Shown one piece after another: positions 10,632-63,838 of a DNA stretch of 64,000 bases. Positions within the stretch are counted from its first letter, which is position 1; each line of letters begins with the position of its first letter. The DNA is taken from the NCBI GenBank assembly GCA_965113315.1, contig OZ220368.1; one strand, given 5' to 3'. The translations under genes were made by a program, and so were the position numbers. Under the pieces are notes generated by a model, which was not told the DNA's origin, did no database searches, and saw only the letters and a program-made list of their open reading frames with translations. The stretch is from Podarcis vaucheri (taxonomy: Eukaryota).

Positions 10632-10772
10632 AATCATAGAATTGTAGAGTTGGAAGGGATCCCAAGGGCCATCTAGTCCACCCCCTGCAATGCAGGAATC
10701 TTTTGCCCAACATGGGGCTTGAACCCATAATCCTGAGATTAAGAGTTTCATGCTCTACCAACTGAGCTATGT
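10632..10772 (-). mobile_element. tRNA-Lys(CTT)-derived SINE with CR1-type 3' tail
   Basis: The reverse complement starts ATAGCTCAGTTGGTAGAGCATGAAACTCTTAATCTCAGG...GGTTCAAGCCCCATGTTGGGC, followed by the CR1 3' end ccttccaactctacaattctatga. Confidence 0.9.
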
Positions 10773-18354: not shown

Positions 18355-18596
18355 CAGTGGTACCTCAGGTTACATACACTTCAGGTTACAGACACTTCGG
18401 GTTACAGACTCTCCTAACCCAGAAATAATACCTCAGGTTAAGAACGTTGCTTCAGGATGAGAACAGAAATTGTGCTCCGGCAGCGCGGCAGCAGCAGGAG
18501 TCCCCATTAGCTAAAGTGGTGCTTCAGGTTAAGAACAATTTCAGGTTAAGAAGGGACCTCCGGAACGAATTAAGTACTTAACCCGAGGTACCACTG
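18355..18596. mobile_element. Tc1/mariner (Tigger/pogo-like) MITE, CAGTGGTACCTC family
   Basis: TIRs CAGTGGTACCTC/GAGGTACCACTG flanked by TA. Sister copies at 41370, 47379 and 49623. Confidence 0.9.
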
Positions 18597-19311
18597 TAGT
18601 TGGTTTATAAGCTGCTTTCCCACAGTGAATTTTATCCAAAGCAGCTCACCACAAACACCAGCTTATCAATGTACCAAACATCCCCCTCGCAAATTTTTTT
18701 TTACAAAATGTATCAATAAATTTGAGTGTCAAAAATATTTACAAGCACAATATTACAAAGAAATAATATAATCTTAATACATAAAATGAAAGGTAATTCC
18801 CATGGCTTCCTTTCCTACCAGAATTGTGAGCTGTTTTAAAATAATTATAGATTAAATCTTGCACTTACACTCATCCAGCTGGCATCCCATAAATACAGTG
18901 GTGTTTTTGTTGTTGTGTGCTTTTTTCCTTGACAGGGACTCAAGGCAGCTATGGTGCTGTGTTCTGGGGGGAAAATGGGAGACTTTAAATCAGGATAATA
19001 AATAAGCCATGATTAGATTCTGGAAAGATTTACAAACCTGTGTTGTTGAATAGAAACATGGGTGAATGTGGGATTGAGGGAATGGATGCAATGAAGCGGA
19101 ATATTATTACTGGAGCTTTAAAAATGGAGTCAGAAAAATGGGTGGGATGGGAAGAAAATCAGTGTGACACTTCTGCTAGAATGAAGAACATGGCTTCCAT
19201 TCTTCATATGTAAACGAGGAGGGGAAAGATGCTCTTCCTTACCTAGTTATGATGAGGATGAACACAATGAAGAGGAAACATACTTTTTGAGCCCAAGTAC
19301 AGTATAAATCA

Positions 19312-36084: not shown

Positions 36085-39000
36085 TAATGTGAAGAAGGAG
36101 GGGGAATTACACCATTAAGACATAATTGGTGTCAGTCTGCCTGAGCCCACTTAAACATGCACAGAGGAGCCTGCAGAGGGACGGGGACTCGAGTTGGGAT
36201 CTGCCTAAATGCAAAATATATGGGTTGGATCCTGTGTCCAGTCATACTTTGACTCACAGGGAGGAATTCAGCATTGTGCCCTTCCAGTGGTCCTGTTGGT
36301 GTAAGCATTTCCTGCGGGTTCTCCAGCCCCCCCCCCCGAAAGAACCTTCTCTTTTTGGCAGAGGACTAGTGAGATTCATTGTGTGTCTCCCATAGTGCAC
36401 CTGTGTAGTAGAATTCATCCCATGGAACTCAATGAAACTTTAGTTACCTGACTGACTTATGTCCCATTAACATCTATGGGTCTGCACTAAGTAGTAATGC
36501 TAATATTTGTTAGTCTTTCCCCCCCCAAAATGAAACAAATGGACTGAATCCAGCTACACACACTCATACTTACCTACCCCTGTGTGACAGGAACAGTGCT
36601 TTTATGTTGAACAGGTGGCTAGACCAGTAAGACAGCAACAAACCTCCCCTGGAACATGTGTGACGTTTGCAGTTCACTTGCCCTTGTCAGTGTAGTTGGA
36701 AACACAGGAAGACTGTCTAGCAGTCCTGTTACAATATCTGTATCTGGAATAAGTTGAGGATCCTATTTCCTCTCTCCTTTTCGCTGTCTCCCTTTTCCGT
36801 GTCCCATTTGCCGTAAACTCTTGCTGCTTGCTTTCAAGATCTTGCCTTCATCTCTCGTCTCTTGTTCTTTGACCTTTGTCCTTCCAAATTCTCACCATTC
36901 TGTTGGCCTCATCCTGTCTGCCAAACCTACGAGTGCTGCTTCTGTCTCTTCATCTCTGTTGCCTCGCACTGTTCCTTGTTCTGTCCTTTGGATGGCACTT
37001 TCATTTGACTTTATTTTGAAATAGAATTATATATTGAAATAGTGGCTGAGACTTCCCTGCTTTCAACCTTTACCTCCTCGTTCTTTTTCCACATTGTGTT
37101 TCTGCTCTTTTCTATCGTGTTCTTTTCCCAGCCTCCATCTTTTTAGTCTGTGAGCTTGCTAGAAGGGTAAGTCCAAAAAAGGACTGTGAGAATAAAAATT
37201 AAAATGTTTGCATCAAAAACACGGGCTGGACCTTGAGAAATGTTTTGATGTATGAACCTAAACATATGAGATTTGGGAATACTTTCATTTGGGCATTGGT
37301 ACTTGACGCCTTGACTGAGACCCCCCACATTTTCAAATGCATCTCTGAACCATGTAGACTAGAGAGTTTCTTGTTTGTTTCCTAATTTCTGGATTCTATC
37401 AAGTTCTTGTGAGCCACAGATTGTGCCCTCAGATGCAAGGGGAGGGAAGGTTCCAGTCTCTCTTTAATTACTGAATAGAAGAAGGCATTTCAGCAGGTGC
37501 AGCCCCTTGTTCGCCCCTTTGACACGATAAGCTGCATCTGCCAAAATTCCTCCTTATACACAACTGTCAAAGGCTCAGGAGCTCTGGGCGGCAAGTTACC
37601 CTGTGTGCTTTCTCAGTTATCCAAGCTGCAATGTCTTAATATTTACCTGTTTTCCTTTCTGTGCCTGCACTCATTCCTTTTTCTTTTTTCCCAATTTTTG
37701 AGTTCATCCTTTTTAGAAATGGGGAAGATGCACACAAATTCAAACCGTGAGAACACCATTGACGTGTATTTTCTGTAATCTGCATTTTGTCAAACCGAGT
37801 GTGGTCTCCTTGTTAGACCACTGAAAGGCATTGAGCTAGTGTTCCCAGAGAAGAATCCTGAAACGGCTTAAGATATCTAACCTGTAACTTGTATCCCTGC
37901 TCTTCGTCTAAGGAGTTCAAAGCAAGGCACATGGGTTTCCCATGCAGTCTCCCATCCAAACACTGACCAGCCCCAAACCTGTCTAGCTTCAGTGGTGGAA
38001 CATCCTCAAGTGGAACAAAATGAAGCAAAGTCCTCTTTGGCCCAGTATGTGCTACTTCCTTTGTGACACGGGAACTACATTTCTGTCTTGGTTTTATGTA
38101 GCAGTCCTTATTTGCATAAAGTTGTTTGCTATCTTCATCTTGTGTGTTCTGATGATGAGCCTCCAAGGTAGGTTATACTGCTGAGGAATCAACAACCAGG
38201 TATTGTTACTTTTCTAAGGTAGCTGTAGCTGTTGGCTATCTCTGGCAACAGGATGGATCCCTGCTACCTCACACTGCTGTGCATTCTGCCAATCAAAAAT
38301 AACATCAAATCTGCCTTCTGTTTTAGGTTTCCTGCCAACTGCAATATGCTTTCTGCTAGCTTTGTTCCTGTTGTAGAAGTGGACAGCTCCACTTTTCCTC
38401 TGACCTCTGATAATTATTTCCAGACACACACCTGGCTTTTTACCACAAGAATCCCGAAGTATCAGGCACCTCATAGGCTTTGTTCACACATAACACAAAG
38501 CCCATGGTTCAGTTAGCCCAACTGTGGGTTGTTGTTTTTTAAGTGTCTGATTCCACCCCACACGAACCATGGTTTATTTCCAGACAGCAAAGCATGATTT
38601 GAAACCATGGCTCATTCTTGGCTTTTTTGGTTTTTCATGACGCCTGAGCCAGCATCCTGGTTTTGTAACCTTTGTTTGGATGTCCTGTCACAGACAGATA
38701 CTCATGAAGTTCCAGAAGTGTGAGGCAAGACCTGTAGGAGAACAAAGCTACTCCCCAGGCTAAGCAGCTCTTGGTGTTACTTTTCCAGAAGTAGGTCTCT
38801 CGCCTCAGGTTGTGATGCCAATGGACATAAAATTGAAAGAGGTTTGACCTGCTTTGCTACTTTGCTGTCTATACAGGACTGTTGTGTTGAAAACACAACA
38901 ATTTTTTAAAGTTGGCTATCCTGATCATTACACCTACCCACAAATTATATCACTTCAGCCAGCAAATTGGTACTTAAAAAAAAACCCCCCAAAAAACGAC

Positions 39001-41369: not shown

Positions 41370-41585
41370 CAGTGGAACCTCGGGTTATGTACTGTCCTCC
41401 GTACGGATGCTTCGGGTAATGAGCTCTGCTAACCCTAGTTGCGAACTTTGCCCCGGGATGCAAGCAGAAGTCGCATGGTGGCAGCAGGAGGCCCCATTAG
41501 CAAAAGCGCGCCTCATGTTAAGAACAGTTTCAGCTTAAGACCGGACCTCCTGAACAAATTAAGTTCATAACCGGAGGTAACACTG
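41370..41585. mobile_element. Tigger/pogo-like MITE (older copy)
   Basis: TA|CAGTGGAACCTC...GAGGTAACACTG|TA. Confidence 0.85.
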
Positions 41586-42256
41586 TATTCTGAAAATAAT
41601 ATTGATTAAAAAAAAAAATTAAAATGCCAGACTCATTCTGATTTATAATCTTTTTTTCTTTCATAGATGAAAATGCAGAACATACTTCTTGCAAGTAGAG
41701 CTTGTGAGGAAGGATCTGTATCGGGGGTTACCAAACATTTTCCTCCATTGGCCACTTGAAAATTGCAGAGGGGCTTAGTGGACAATGATTTTTCGCCCTT
41801 TGTAGTAATTGTAGTGCACTATGATAGGTGCTGTATGATTTTTAATTATATTTTTATTGCTCCTTTTGTTTTTTATATATTATATTACCGTTTGAATTCT
41901 GATATTAAATATATTAAATATTTTTAATTATTTTAACTGTGTTTTTATTGCTGCTTTTATTTCACATTGTACAGTATTACAATTTAAATTTCTTCAAATC
42001 CAAAATTTAAATACAATATAAGAAATAAAAGAAGCAATTAAAACAGTTAAAAATCAATATAAATATTTAATGCGATGGATGTGCTGTCTCCTGTCTCCAA
42101 ACACAAATCCACAGGCATACTGTGGACCACCTGAAAGACCCTGGTGGACCACTAGTGGTCTGTGGACCACAGTTTGGGAACCTCTGTTCTAGATTGTATG
42201 CCTCTTAAGGCAGGAACCTGGAGCCTTGTTAAAGTCTGGTTTCTTCATTTTTGCAG

Positions 42257-44862: not shown

Positions 44863-45903
44863 TCATAGAATCATAGAATCATAGAATCATAGAGTTGGAA
44901 GAGACCACAAGGGCCATCGAGTCCAACCCCCTGCCAAGCAGGAAACACCATCAGAGCACTCCTGACATATGGTTGTCAAGCCTCTGCTTAAAGACCTCCA
45001 AAGTAGGAGACTCCACCACACTCCTTGGCAGCAAATTCCACTGTCGAACAGCTCTTACTGTCAGGAAGTTCTTCCTAATGTTTAGGTGGAATCTTCTTTC
45101 TTGTAGTTTGGATCCATTGCTCCGTGTCCGCTTCTCTGGAGCAGCAGAAAACAACCTTTCTCCCTCCTCTATGTGACATCCTTTTATATATTTGAACATG
45201 GCTATCATATCACCCATTAACCTCCTCTTCTCCAGGCTAAACATGCCCAGCTCCCTTAGCCGTTCCTCATAAGGCATCGTTTCCAGGCCTTTGATCATTT
45301 TGGTTGCCCTCCTCTGGACACGTTCCAGTTTGTCAGTGTCCTTCTTGAATTGTGGTGCCCAGAACTGGACACAGTACTCCAGGTGTGGTCTGACCAGAGC
45401 AGAATACAGTGGGACTATTACTTCCCTTGATCTAGATGCTATACTCCTATTGATGCAGCCCAGAATTGCATTGGCTTTTTTAGCTGCCGCGTCACACTGT
45501 TGGCTCATGTCAAGTTTGTGGTCAACCAAGACTCCTAGATCCTTTTCACATGTACTGCTCTCAAGCCAGGTGTCACCCATCTTGTATTTGTGCCTCTCAT
45601 TTTTTTTGCCCAAGTGCAATACTTTACATTTCTCCCTGTTAAAATTCATCTTGTTTGTTTTTGCCCAGTTCTCTAATCTGTCAAGGTCGTTTTGAAGTGT
45701 GATCCTGTCCTCTGGGGTGTTAGCCACCCCTCCCAGTTTGGTGTCATCTGCAAATTTGATCAGGATGCCCTTGAGTCCATCATCCAAGTCGTTGATAAAG
45801 ATGTTGAATAAGACCGGGCCCAAGACAGAACCCTGTGGCACCCCACTAGTCACTCTTCTCCAGGATGAAGAGGAACCATTGATGAGCACCCTTTGGGTTC
45901 GGT
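44863..45903 (-). mobile_element. CR1 LINE, 5'-truncated, uninterrupted RT C-terminal reading frame
   Basis: ORF 44951-45952 contains [10 protein letters not shown] and FADDTKL. (CATAGAAT)n tail. Nearly identical to the 1115-2214 copy. Confidence 0.97.
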
Positions 45904-47231: not shown

Positions 47232-47378
47232 GTGAGTGTGATGGTTTCAGAAACTGCAGCAAACCCTTAAGTTCTAGGAACTAGAGGCTGATTCAGATTC
47301 CCTTGTAAGCAGAGAGAAAAGCTGAAGTGGTCAGTGGAACAAATACAAGCATATGGCGCGATCAGACTTTACAGTATA

Positions 47379-47602
47379 CAGTGGTACCTCGGGTTACAGA
47401 CGCTTCAGGTTACAGACTCCGCTAACCCAGAAATAGTACTGGGTTAAGAACTTTGCTTCAGGATGAGAACAGAAATTGTGCAGTGGCGGGGCGGCGGCAG
47501 CAGGAGGCCCCATTAGCTAAAGTGGTGCTTCAGGTTAAGAACAGTTTCAGGTTAAGAACGGACCTCTGGAACGAATTAAGTACTTAACCCGAGGTACCAC
47601 TG
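47379..47602. mobile_element. Tigger/pogo-like MITE
   Basis: TA|CAGTGGTACCTCGGGTTA...TAACCCGAGGTACCACTG|TA, perfect TIRs. Confidence 0.93.
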
Positions 47603-48143
47603 TATTTTACTATAGAGGAAGCCCTTTTTGTCTGTTTCTTGTTTGGGGTCAGACCATCAGAAGAGCCTCTCAGGTCAGGCCAGGGCCCCTCTACTCCTGT
47701 TCTCGGAGTAGCCCACCAAGTGCCCACAGGAGCCCCATAGCGGGACCTGATCACCAGAGCCCTCTCCCACTGGGGATGGACAGCAGCCAGCATTCAGAAG
47801 CATACTTCCTCTGACAGTGGAAGCAGAACATGGCCATTGTGGCTTCTCCTCCAGGAATTGGTCTCCCCTTTTAAAGCCATCCAAATTGGTAGCCATCACT
47901 GCCTCTTGTGGGAGCAGCCTCCTTCGTTTGTCTGGTGCTGGGTCTGCCCTGAAGCTTGCAACCTTCAGCTTTGCTGGGTGTCTTCAAGTTCTAGTGGGAT
48001 GAGAGAGGGATATGGCTGCTGTTTGGGGGGCAGAGGATGGTGGGGTTTTCCTTGCCCTCCTGGAGCTGCTTCCCCAGCTTCAGTGCCATGGAGTAGAAAG
48101 AAGAGAGAACTGACTTCTTGCTTTTCTCTCCCCGCAACTCCAG

Positions 48144-49483: not shown

Positions 49484-49582
49484 ATTTGGCTCTTCAAGCA
49501 GAAGCCTGAGTTGCTGGACCCCCTGGTGAAATTTCACAGCTGCACCACATTCTTTGGGAAGAACTACGTTGAGATCCGCAAG
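49484..49582 (+). CDS. HSD17B7: HSD17B7 exon 8 (IWLFKQKPELLDPLVKFHSCTTFFGKNYVEIRK)
   Basis: ctag|ATT acceptor, AAG|gtaagt donor, 99 nt. Confidence 0.96.
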
Positions 49583-49622
49583 GTAAGTAGACCCCTTCGT
49601 GTGCATTGTGTTGTCACGAGTA

Positions 49623-49831
49623 CAGTGGTACCTCAGGTTACTTACGCTTCAGGTTACACACTCCACTAACCCAGAAATAGTGCTTCAGGTTAAGAACTTT
49701 GCTTCAGGATGAGAACAGAAATTGTGCTCCAGCGGTGAAGTGGCAGCAGGAGGCCCAATTAGCTAAAGTGGTGCTTCAGGTTAAGAACAGACTTCCGGAA
49801 AGAATTAAGTACTTAACCCGAGGTACCATTG
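49623..49831. mobile_element. Tigger/pogo-like MITE
   Basis: TA|CAGTGGTACCTC...GAGGTACCATTG|TA. Confidence 0.9.
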
Positions 49832-49999
49832 TATTCCTTTCATGCTTTTGGTGCACGCTACGCCGTGGGAAATCATGGAGGACCTACGTCATGAGGCAAG
49901 GCAAGGCAGCTGTCTTGGAGGGGGGATTCCGAGTTCCATTAAGAGGCAGCAGAATCTTCCAGAAAGTTCCACTGCAGAAAGCCCCATGGAAATGAATGT

Positions 50000-50037
50000 G
50001 TATCTGAAGAAGTGTGCATGCACACGAAAGCTCATAC
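50000..50037 (+). ncRNA. Minimal type I hammerhead ribozyme
   Basis: GTAT | CTGAAGA A | GTGTG-CATG-CACAC | GAAA | GC | TC | ATAC. All core nucleotides are present. Predicted cleavage after C50033. Confidence 0.85.
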
Positions 50038-50129
50038 CAAGAACTAACTTAGTTGGTCTTTAAGGTGCTACTGGAAGGAATTTTTTTATTTTGACTATGG
50101 CAGACCAACACGGCTACCTATCTGTAATA
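50000..50129 (+). mobile_element. Penelope-like element pLTR insertion
   Basis: Perfect 11-bp TSD gaaatgaatgt (49989-49999 / 50130-50140). Hammerhead at the 5' end. Tail ttagttggtctttaaggtgctac...gcagaccaacacggctac. Confidence 0.85.
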
Positions 50130-50641
50130 GAAATGAATGTTACTCGCCTGGAGCTTTGGAGATAGGAAGGGCTAAAGCTTACATTTATTTTTAAATGTTA
50201 CTTCCCTGCGAAAGATGTGTCTTGCTGGACTAGATCAGAGGCCCATCCAAACCAGCGTTGTCTCCCACTGCATGGGCCACAGGCAGGCTGGGGTCGCATC
50301 AACACTCCCCACTTGCAGTGACCAGGCAAAGGCTGACTATGGATGCCCAGAGTGTTTTATGGCTCCTGCCACTTTGCAACCCAGGGGCTTTGCAGTGAGA
50401 AGTGCCAGCCGCCTGCCACCTTCGTGTCCCCAAGAAAGCAGCTGGGTCCGCCTTCTACGCACCTCTGCAGTTGGGTCAGAGCCAGCACCTGTGGTGTACA
50501 GTTCCTAGGTTCCTTTAGCTGATGGGAGGGAGGGGTGGCTCTGGGGTCTCCTCTGGGGGTGGGGGGGGTGGGCTTGTGGTAAAGGAAAGGAAACACTGCT
50601 GGTTCTATGGAATCTGTCCTGATCACAGCTGTGTCTTTCAG

Positions 50642-50743
50642 ATGGATCTCAGTGAAGATACCGCAGAGAAGCTGTACGAGAAGCTCCTGGAACTAGAGAA
50701 GCAACTTCTTGCAAGGTCCAACAGCCCACAGCATAAAAAATAG
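50642..50743 (+). CDS. HSD17B7: HSD17B7 exon 9 (MDLSEDTAEKLYEKLLELEKQLLARSNSPQHKK*)
   Basis: ttcag|ATG acceptor, TAG at 50741-50743. The spliced CDS totals 1005 nt (334 aa), a 3-keto-steroid reductase / 17-beta-HSD7. Confidence 0.96.
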   Translation: MDLSEDTAEKLYEKLLELEKQLLARSNSPQHKK

Positions 50744-51083: not shown

Positions 51084-51089
51084 AATAAA
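51084..51089 (+). terminator. Probable HSD17B7 polyadenylation signal AATAAA
   Basis: First AATAAA after the stop, followed by GT-rich sequence (gctgtgtccttgtttc). Confidence 0.65.
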
Positions 51090-62021: not shown

Positions 62022-62513
62022 AAGTGGTCTGCTGGAACGCAGCCCCTTCGCCTTACTGGACGGGGTACAAGAGAGAAGACAACTGATTGCCTACCCAGCG
62101 CGCACTGGAAAAATTTTTTCCAGGGGAACGCAGCAGTCTCGTCTGTCTGATACCCTGCCCACTGACGGCGACGGACCGGGGGGGAACCAGAGAAATAAAC
62201 AGGGAACCAGCTAAGGGTAAGTGCACTAAGGGGTTTTGGCCCTCCAATTAATTGGGAGGAAGAGAAGTCCTGATCAAACTTCTGCGTCTCAGTAAAGGGG
62301 AACTGAGTACGCTAGGTGGCTGGGTACATCAGATGGTGATCTGGTGTAGGGAAAAGGGAAGATTGGGAGGTAGAGTATGGTTGAAGTATCTGGCGCATTG
62401 CATGTGTGAGAAAGTACAATGTGTAGCTGACCTAAGTGTGGAGTGAGTACTACTTCGTTTCCCAGTAAGGTGTGTGTGTGAGTGACTGAGTGGATACTTC
62501 ACAGGGCCATACA

Positions 62514-63838
62514 ATGGGAGTTGGGGGTTCAAAGGGGGGAAATACACCTTTTGAATGTATGTTAAATAATTTTAAGAAAGCCTTCTCAGGGGCATATGGA
62601 GTCAAAATGACGCCAGAACGCCTGAGAACGTTATGTGAATTAGAGTGGCCGAAACAAAATACTGGATGGCCATCTCAAGGAACCTTTGATATAAATTTAG
62701 TAAGCAAACTTTGGCCTAACATCGCCAAAGAAACTGGAGGGTGCCCAGAACAATTTTCATATATAGATTCCTGGCTGAGCACATTAAATAAAAATCCTCC
62801 ATGGATAAGGGAATGCAAAGTCCAACGATGCAAATTATTGGCTGTAAAAGCCGAAGCTAGGAAAGGAATCTTGCCAAATAAACTCAAACCCATTTTTGAG
62901 GGACCAGAGGAAGAGGTGCTTCTATCTCCACCCTATGCTCCACATCGAAGGGAGCCTAATTCAAACCCTCCACCAGTTGTAACCCCAAGGCAAGAAAGTG
63001 GAACGAATAATGGGGGTGGAGTCACAGAACTTGATTCCTTGATAGATTATGATAAATATCTTCAGGAGGCATTGGAGTCCTATAATAAAGCCCAAGCAGA
63101 AGTGGTTATTCCACCTGTGAGTCCCAGTAGAACTCCATCTACAGTCTCTTTTAGTGGAATAACTGATTGCCCACCCCAAACCCCTGTACATCCAAGTCCT
63201 AGAGAATTATTACAGAAGTTACAGGGAGACCTTTATTGGTCAGCAAGCAATACAGCCAGGCGTATAAAGCTGCTAAAAGAACGCCTTGGGACAGATACCA
63301 TCCCCTATGATTTGAGGCCCCTAGAGCAAAGCGAAGAGAAAGGTCACGTAGTAGCCCCTCTTAGAAGGGTATTTGATGCACTTGAGGAGCCTGTGCTGGT
63401 TAATGGGCAACCCGGACCACGGCCACCTCGAACTTCGATCCTCCAGTACATTCCATTCACAACTACGGATCTGATGAATTGGAAAACACCCCATCTTTCT
63501 CAGAAAAACCTCGGGCTATGATGGACTTGGTGACTTCAATAGTAAATACTCATAGTCCTACTTGGACAGATTGTCGCCAGCTCCTGAATACTCTCTTCAC
63601 CACTGAGGAAAGGAGAGACATAATTGAAAAGGCACAGATATATTTGCGTGAGCAGGCCAGAGTGGGAAATATTTATAATATTGACCGTCATCTCCAGGAC
63701 AACTTTCCCTTGGAAGATCCTAATTGGGATCCAAACAATGCAATTCACCTGGCCAGGCTTACCACCTACTGCCAGATGCTTGTGCAAGGTATCTGCAGGG
63801 CATGCCAGAAGCCCACTAATATGTCTAAAGTCTCAGGA
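62514..63838 (+). pseudogene. gag: ERV gag (MA, p12-like, N-terminal CA), frameshifted near 63487 and truncated before the MHR
   Basis: MGVGGS myristoylation signal; RLRTLCELEWP...GWPSQGTFD matrix motif; SPPY; CA begins PLR at 63357; YIPFTTTDLMNWK / PSFSEKP; HSPTWTDCRQLLNTLFTTEER; PNWDPN; PTNMSKV. Confidence 0.93.

Follow-up and report, generated by a model that had tools for sequence, protein, structure and literature searches.

Minimal type I hammerhead motif in a likely recent, probably Penelope-like insertion of the last HSD17B7 intron of Podarcis vaucheri, probably spliced out uncut

A complete hammerhead core that lies in sense orientation within the final HSD17B7 intron of Podarcis vaucheri raises the question whether the host pre-mRNA is cut by it or merely carries it as part of a transposon copy. 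This was addressed computationally in a window of 64,000 nucleotides (contig OZ220368.1 of assembly GCA_965113315.1), the first letter of which is position 1. HSD17B7 lies on the + strand and comprises nine GT-AG exons of 35, 204, 93, 115, 195, 105, 57, 99, and 102 nt, giving a product of 334 amino acids with 329/334 residues identical to Podarcis raffonei HSD17B7 isoform X2. The gene is preceded by a tyrosine-kinase gene and followed by CCDC190; the former is presumably DDR2, judging by the mammalian order DDR2-HSD17B7-CCDC190. A PDB search with HSD17B7 exon 5 gave 0 matches. The 3′ part of the gene is arranged as follows.

49484..49582, + strand: penultimate exon, 99 nt
49583..50641, + strand: last intron, 1059 nt, with the cut position of the motif 451 nt past the donor and 608 nt short of the acceptor
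50642..50743, + strand: last exon, coding part to the stop; AATAAA at 51084; sense RNA reads on the 3′ UTR in single-cell RNA run X21

An earlier note on this DNA had located the motif between exons 8 and 9. This applies to the 334-aa isoform but not to a 378-aa isoform, which has one extra upstream exon. The latter is a 132-nt in-frame cassette exon (37913-38044, + strand, AG...GTATGT) between exons 3 and 4, and its 44-residue insert is well conserved in all seven long squamate isoforms aligned (Podarcis, Rhineura, Tiliqua, Hemicordylus, Elgaria, Sceloporus, and Pogona). Part of the cassette exon has what we take to be a resemblance to antisense 5S rRNA or a 5S-derived SINE; no 5S match was found in it in Rfam, and it is possibly an old exonised repeat.

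The motif itself is a complete minimal type I hammerhead at 50000-50037 on the + strand, with the scissile bond at 50033/50034. It consists of the following parts.

50000..50003 with 50034..50037, + strand: helix I, GUAU/AUAC, 4 bp, closing both ends of the motif
50004..50010, + strand: core CUGAAGA, followed by an extra A at 50011
50012..50025, + strand: helix II, GUGUG-CAUG-CACAC, 5 bp with loop CAUG
50026..50028, + strand: GAA
50029..50032, + strand: AGCU
50033, + strand: C17

All core positions are present (C3 U4 G5 A6 N7 G8 A9, G12 A13 A14, A15.1-U16.1, and H17), A50011 being an extra nucleotide between 9 and 10.1 and G50012-C50025 the G10.1-C11.1 pair. Helix III is absent and its place is taken by the palindromic AGCU (15.2-16.2), while helix II together with its loop (50012-50025) forms a perfect 14-nt palindrome. 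Both strands of the window were searched with a hammerhead descriptor, resulting in a single match, starting at 50000. A similar descriptor gave any match in only 3/200 dinucleotide-resampled windows, and a chance motif was ruled out by these resamples and by the position of the motif at the start of a high-copy insertion. The minimal hammerhead sense to the last intron, as described in the earlier note, was thus confirmed position by position. Detection with hammerhead models, also proposed there, gave a divided outcome: the descriptor found the motif, but an Rfam search with E up to 10 returned no hammerhead model or other relevant family over the element. Compared with canonical type I hammerheads, 50000-50037 has a helix I of 4 bp instead of 6 bp with loop contacts, and no real helix III. 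Folding of the 38-mer yielded helices I and II without special stability (z -0.44).

The hammerhead opens an insertion that is bounded by direct repeats, as listed below.

49986..49999, + strand: left target-site duplication copy, probably 14 bp, with an exact 11-bp core at 49989-49999
50000..50126, + strand: repeat insertion of 127 bp, probably the 3′ end (pLTR/tail) of a Penelope-like element; with an 11-bp duplication it would reach 50129 and measure 130 bp
50127..50140, + strand: right target-site duplication copy, with an exact 11-bp core at 50130-50140

About 90 nt separate the hammerhead from the right duplication. No ORF was found in the 127-130 bp insertion, and the only ATG frame through helix II closes after 10 codons. 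Further copies of the element were not found within the window, leaving a solo fragment without a tandem unit. Five scans of viral, metagenome, and genome contig collections, which contain little reptile DNA and are thus uninformative on the family, gave 0 matches.

Occupancy of the site in related lizards was assessed in 4 of 24 listed sequencing runs, namely DNA runs X1 and X8 (organism A) and X4 (organism B) and the single-cell RNA run X21. One contig from X4 follows the window over 49809-49985 and resumes at 50127, skipping 141 bases that correspond to the element plus one duplication copy; the empty site thus has a single copy of the duplicated target where the window has two. Similarly, one contig from X8 skips 140 bases, passing from 49990 to 50131. 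The empty site was therefore seen directly in two of the three DNA runs. Run X1 matches the right flank of the window with 3 differences in 1054 bases (99.7% identical). Its left contig ends at 49985 with 50 leftover letters, and its next contig starts at 50147; if the leftover letters are continued from 50127, they reach 50176 and share exactly 30 bases with that next contig, from which we infer an empty site in X1 as well. The insertion junction was not found among the DNA-run pieces listed, which are contigs and as such drop rare variants. Contrary to the earlier statement that every HSD17B7 pre-mRNA contains the ribozyme, the site is thus empty in X4 and X8 and, by the overlap, in X1. The insertion is not common to close relatives and is probably either polymorphic or lineage-limited, in line with the young and possibly polymorphic insertion that had been proposed, and it is likely recent. 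A conserved or host-domesticated intronic ribozyme was considered and rejected on the same empty orthologous sites.

The empty sites also bear on the length of the duplication. Exact 11-bp repeats (49989-49999 and 50130-50140) do flank 130 bp, as the earlier note had it, but the repeat runs on to 13 matches in 14 bases (49986-49999 against 50127-50140), with a mismatch at 49988/50129. Judging by the aligner's placement of the joint, the target was probably duplicated over 14 bp, the left copy later changing at one base (49988), and the element would measure 127 bp. A duplication of 14 bp is favoured because the empty-allele joint of X4 lies at 49985/50127 and the X1 piece also ends at 49985; an aligner would choose this position for an empty allele carrying the right-hand letter of the mismatch. 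The joint in X8 does not discriminate between 11 bp and 14 bp. With one mismatch in a 14-bp duplication, its description as perfect is weakened.

The element belongs to a very abundant family. In X1, X4, and X8, contig depths add up to 2.7-6.7 million over the element and to 22-123 over the flank, giving ratios of approximately 50,000, 61,000, and 122,000, which are inflated by overlapping contigs and are no true copy numbers. We take the copy number of the family to lie between thousands and tens of thousands. Among the joints listed from other loci, four of five in the element lay at 49997-50000 and two more at 49998-49999, and in this small, tool-selected sample the letters preceding the 49997-50000 joints differed from joint to joint. 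This hints at a recurrent 5′ end of the family at the base of helix I. Other repeats in the window include an endogenous retrovirus start at the window end (62490-63518, + strand), with a 343-codon open frame carrying a retroviral Gag matrix domain (Pfam Gag_MA, E 2.7e-13), and a LINE fragment at 1058-2042, in which a reverse-transcriptase frame (Pfam RVT_1) occupies 1058-1552. An apparently related LINE piece, presumably CR1-like, lies on the opposite strand in HSD17B7 intron 5 (~44880-45870). At 10712-10769 on the - strand, a tRNA-like match above the Rfam gathering score (41.2 bits, model positions 8-63) is possibly the head of a tRNA-derived SINE.

RNA of the family was analysed in X21, which carries the label of organism B, the label of the empty-site DNA run X4. 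Approximately 12% of this run was read, yielding 8396 reads including those on a control repeat. Reads on the HSD17B7 3′ UTR fell on the + strand with depth up to 11, so that + represents sense. Element-like reads, originating from other loci, reached a depth of 545 on the + strand and 377 on the - strand; sense RNA of the family is thus about 50 times deeper than the HSD17B7 3′ end (545 vs 11). RNA ends at 50033, suggested earlier as a mark of cleavage, were looked for and no pile-up was found in X21, although this is a weak test, as the run has another species label, its library does not capture 5′-OH or cyclic-phosphate ends, and its reads represent the family and not this allele. In 61-base bins, the sense/antisense ratio went from 1.29 upstream of the cut position through 1.44 across it to 1.69 on the downstream side, hence lower by about one quarter upstream than downstream, which alone could mean some cutting. 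A ribozyme-free repeat in the same intron was used as control.

49622..49833, no strand assigned: MITE-like high-copy repeat with inverted ends, unrelated to the element; control without ribozyme for the strand ratio

Over this repeat the ratio ranged from 0.77 to 3.16 from left to right, and the ratios of the element fall inside this range. The MITE-like repeat occurs in four copies (49622-49833, 47378-47604, 18378-18598, and 41478-41587, 71-83% alike to the first) and shows very high summed depth in all runs examined.

The capacity of the motif to cut was evaluated by sequence search and folding. The 20-kb pre-mRNA (31000-51150) contains no second core or exact substrate strand, only three 9-mers with one mismatch. 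In an energy model, in-context pairing probabilities were 0.76-0.90 for helix II and 0.24-0.68 for helix I; with the core intact and both helices predicted, the motif could cut if assisted. The classical active dimer, joined through helix III, had +3.5 to +3.8 kcal/mol in the model, with two monomers as reference, and missed 10% occupancy at 1 μM by 10.7 kcal/mol, figures of which the size of the gap matters and not the exact value, as nearest-neighbour energies omit core stacking, Mg2+, and proteins and understate the stability of the hammerhead junction. The best modelled dimer paired instead via the 14-nt palindromic helix II, at -16 kcal/mol vs two monomers and still without helix III; for the palindrome, the intermolecular duplex had -25.2 kcal/mol vs -4.1 for the hairpin. 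As a general dimer device this palindrome was rejected, because the duplex lacks helix III and because, counted by eye in PMC4209133, only 1/56 listed minimal hammerheads has a Watson-Crick self-complementary loop II (Oikopleura, GAUC). A 4-nt loop is palindromic by chance in about 1 in 16 cases. Closure of helix III within the same helix II duplex looks sterically impossible, by reasoning only.

Published activities of related motifs are low. In PMC4209133, minimal hammerheads showed no activity as monomers and low activity as dimers at 10 mM Mg2+, the dimers assayed being tandem copies on one RNA, and very low rates even as dimers are stated in a review (PMC6765202). For the hammerhead of the anole element PAc, PMC11167929 describes cleavage only with the element's own protein, abolished by core mutants, and no RNA-seq ends at the cut site in vivo. 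Cutting by a slow hammerhead leaves an intron able to splice, while a fast HDV ribozyme blocks splicing (Dye 2006 and Fong 2009, as summarized in PMC2995048), and splicing takes 5-10 min (PMC2995048). For illustration, with assumed values of 1% occupancy and 0.1/min for 10 min, 1% of transcripts would be cut. The concentration-dependent cut of HSD17B7 pre-mRNA put forward in the earlier note is not borne out, given the missing partner core in the 20-kb pre-mRNA, the unfavourable helix III dimer, and the inactivity of minimal hammerheads alone.

The best explanation, to which a probability of about 0.8 was assigned, is an intact minimal hammerhead within a 127-130 bp repeat, likely derived from a Penelope-like element (its 3′ end) and likely inserted recently, that is predicted to be a passenger spliced out uncut. 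Following this explanation, the endonuclease and reverse transcriptase of an element would have nicked the site and copied uncut element RNA from the tail back through the hammerhead; copying would have halted at the base of helix I, and repair would have left the duplication of ~14 bp. The nascent intron would then fold helices I and II, while helix III, consisting of one A-U pair and a 2-nt loop, would be unable to form on its own. For pairing with a partner RNA, only 4+4+4 bp and the ~5-10 min before splicing would be available, so that negligible cutting is expected; if a transcript were occasionally cut slowly, exon tethering would probably still allow it to be spliced. Against the passenger explanation, partner RNAs are plentiful in X21. 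With a family so abundant, insertion into a sterol gene calls for no explanation.

Other explanations allow the motif or its surroundings an effect on the host. In one, two RNAs would pair via the AGCU palindrome, and the ensuing concentration-dependent cut of HSD17B7 pre-mRNA would tune a sterol enzyme. AGCU is self-complementary, dimeric minimal hammerhead constructs do cleave to some extent (PMC4209133), and sense RNA of the family is abundant, but those published dimers were tandem on one RNA and of low activity, the helix II duplex wins over the active dimer in the model, no partner exists in cis, and the absence of the site in related lizards speaks against a conserved regulatory role, so that this proposal was considered extremely improbable. 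Cutting assisted by a protein was judged unlikely, less strongly so: the protein of an autonomous Penelope element, likely in the germline, would bind the intronic copy, help it fold, and cut a fraction of the transcripts of the insertion allele. The protein dependence of PAc cleavage and its loss in core mutants (PMC11167929) fit this proposal, as do the intact core at 50000-50037 and a family that looks recently active at a site that is not fixed. The RNA that PAc requires, on the other hand, is the first 172 nt of its ORF according to the same text, where the Podarcis copy has ~90 nt after the hammerhead and an ATG frame of 10 codons; PAc itself left no RNA-seq ends in vivo, ends were not piled up in X21, and a slow cut need not block splicing (PMC2995048). 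At its widest, this line of thought would make the intronic Penelope hammerheads of lizards live ribozymes, joined by the palindromic helix II or folded by protein, that cut host pre-mRNAs in vivo, with the insertion allele measurably lowering or altering HSD17B7 output. We hold this to be quite improbable; if true, the insertion/empty pair would be a natural experiment, and thousands of transposon ribozymes would act on a vertebrate transcriptome.

An effect on splicing would not involve the ribozyme and would depend on the following feature.

50081..50103, + strand: T-rich tract (14/20 pyrimidines) then CAG (50101-50103), possible cryptic 3′ splice site

If this CAG competed as acceptor, read-through would give an early stop, the last 33 residues being replaced by 7 others and a stop. 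Its pyrimidine content compares with 13/20 at the true last acceptor (13-17 of 20 at five real acceptors), and a branch-like CTAAC lies upstream at 50044; 56 nt, interrupted by further AGs, however separate the branch-like A from the AG, and no such joint occurred among the 15 joints listed, beyond which there were 133 more, the species label of the RNA run X21 being that of the empty site, so that an effect by way of this acceptor seems very unlikely. A further proposal concerns the element and not the host, and was held tentatively as a minority possibility: the insertion would be a short non-autonomous family unit, a retrozyme-like or SINE-like Penelope derivative with a fixed 5′ end at the base of helix I, and not a chance 5′-truncated copy. 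The recurrent joints at 49997-50000 with differing letters before them point in this direction, as do the intron of Drosophila virilis Penelope ending at the 5′ end of helix I (PMC4209133) and the solo monomers described for retrozymes derived from Penelope-like elements (bioRxiv 10.64898/2026.07.22.740005). The joints are however few and selected by the tool, the window holds no upstream element sequence and does not display longer copies, a tandem unit is absent from it, and RNA cut by the hammerhead would start at 50034 and not at 50000. This proposal is compatible with the passenger explanation as regards host function, and the verdict at host level is unchanged.

Positions 50000-50126 are one more copy of a very common repeat, of which the motif class has been known since 2014 and a close turtle example is in print. 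A report of Penelope minimal hammerheads cutting host pre-mRNA in vivo was not found in the open-access literature. The practical use of the locus is that an intact sense core in a short last intron, combined with an empty allele in close relatives, provides a clean allele pair for the cleavage question; should cutting be demonstrated, many of the copies in lizard introns would be candidate expression variants.

Among known systems, the motif is of the kind described for metazoan Penelope-like elements (Cervera and De la Peña 2014, PMC4209133) and matches the minimal hammerhead consensus in Fig. S3 of that paper, in agreement with the Penelope assignment of the earlier note. The closest example listed in that figure, from Chrysemys picta, has the same layout, with CUGAAGA plus one extra A, G10.1-C11.1, a 4-bp helix I, and a 5-bp helix II; AGCU likewise replaces helix III, and both are solitary dispersed copies. 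By eye, in these two sequences, the helices carry compensating changes, GCAU/AUGC in Chrysemys vs GUAU/AUAC in Podarcis for helix I and GUGGG/CCCAC vs GUGUG/CACAC for helix II. The Podarcis motif differs from the published form shown there in its loop II, CAUG, which makes helix II a 14-nt palindrome, and in C instead of U at H17; the Chrysemys motif is not marked in the figure as linked to a Penelope-like element. The Poseidon element PAc of Anolis carolinensis is likewise a squamate Penelope-like element; it carries a minimal hammerhead and, downstream of it, a tail in which reverse transcription is initiated (PMC11167929). The PAc ORF begins at helix II, according to that paper, whereas the Podarcis frame there stops after 10 codons; by this stop the Podarcis element probably belongs to a family other than PAc. 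The motif words were not found in three supplements of PMC11167929, and the open-access literature yielded no paper on this Podarcis family.

Non-LTR retrozymes, too, are short non-coding repeats bearing a type I hammerhead; they also exist as solo monomers, and ~42-44% of the Xenopus copies are in introns (PMC7229834 and bioRxiv 10.64898/2026.07.22.740005). Unlike these, the Podarcis fragment lacks a tandem array, a second hammerhead, and the canonical helix I of 6 bp with its loop contacts. Penelope-like elements of the endonuclease-bearing clades have one ORF encoding a telomerase-like RT and a GIY-YIG endonuclease, a hammerhead close to their 3′ end within the pLTR, a tail of 30-40 bp, and pLTRs in tandem or inverted arrangement. 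Rotifer Penelope-like elements have target-site duplications of 8-10 bp (PMC8557442 and PMC3846280). Motif type, 3′-end-like layout, duplication, and abundance make a Penelope-like retroelement the likely source of the fragment, which would be its 3′ end. Conserved intronic ribozymes share with it a motif on the sense strand of an intron and, unlike the Podarcis copy, are kept across species. Conserved intronic hammerheads are active as single RNAs, whereas the Podarcis copy lacks helix III and is absent from close relatives.
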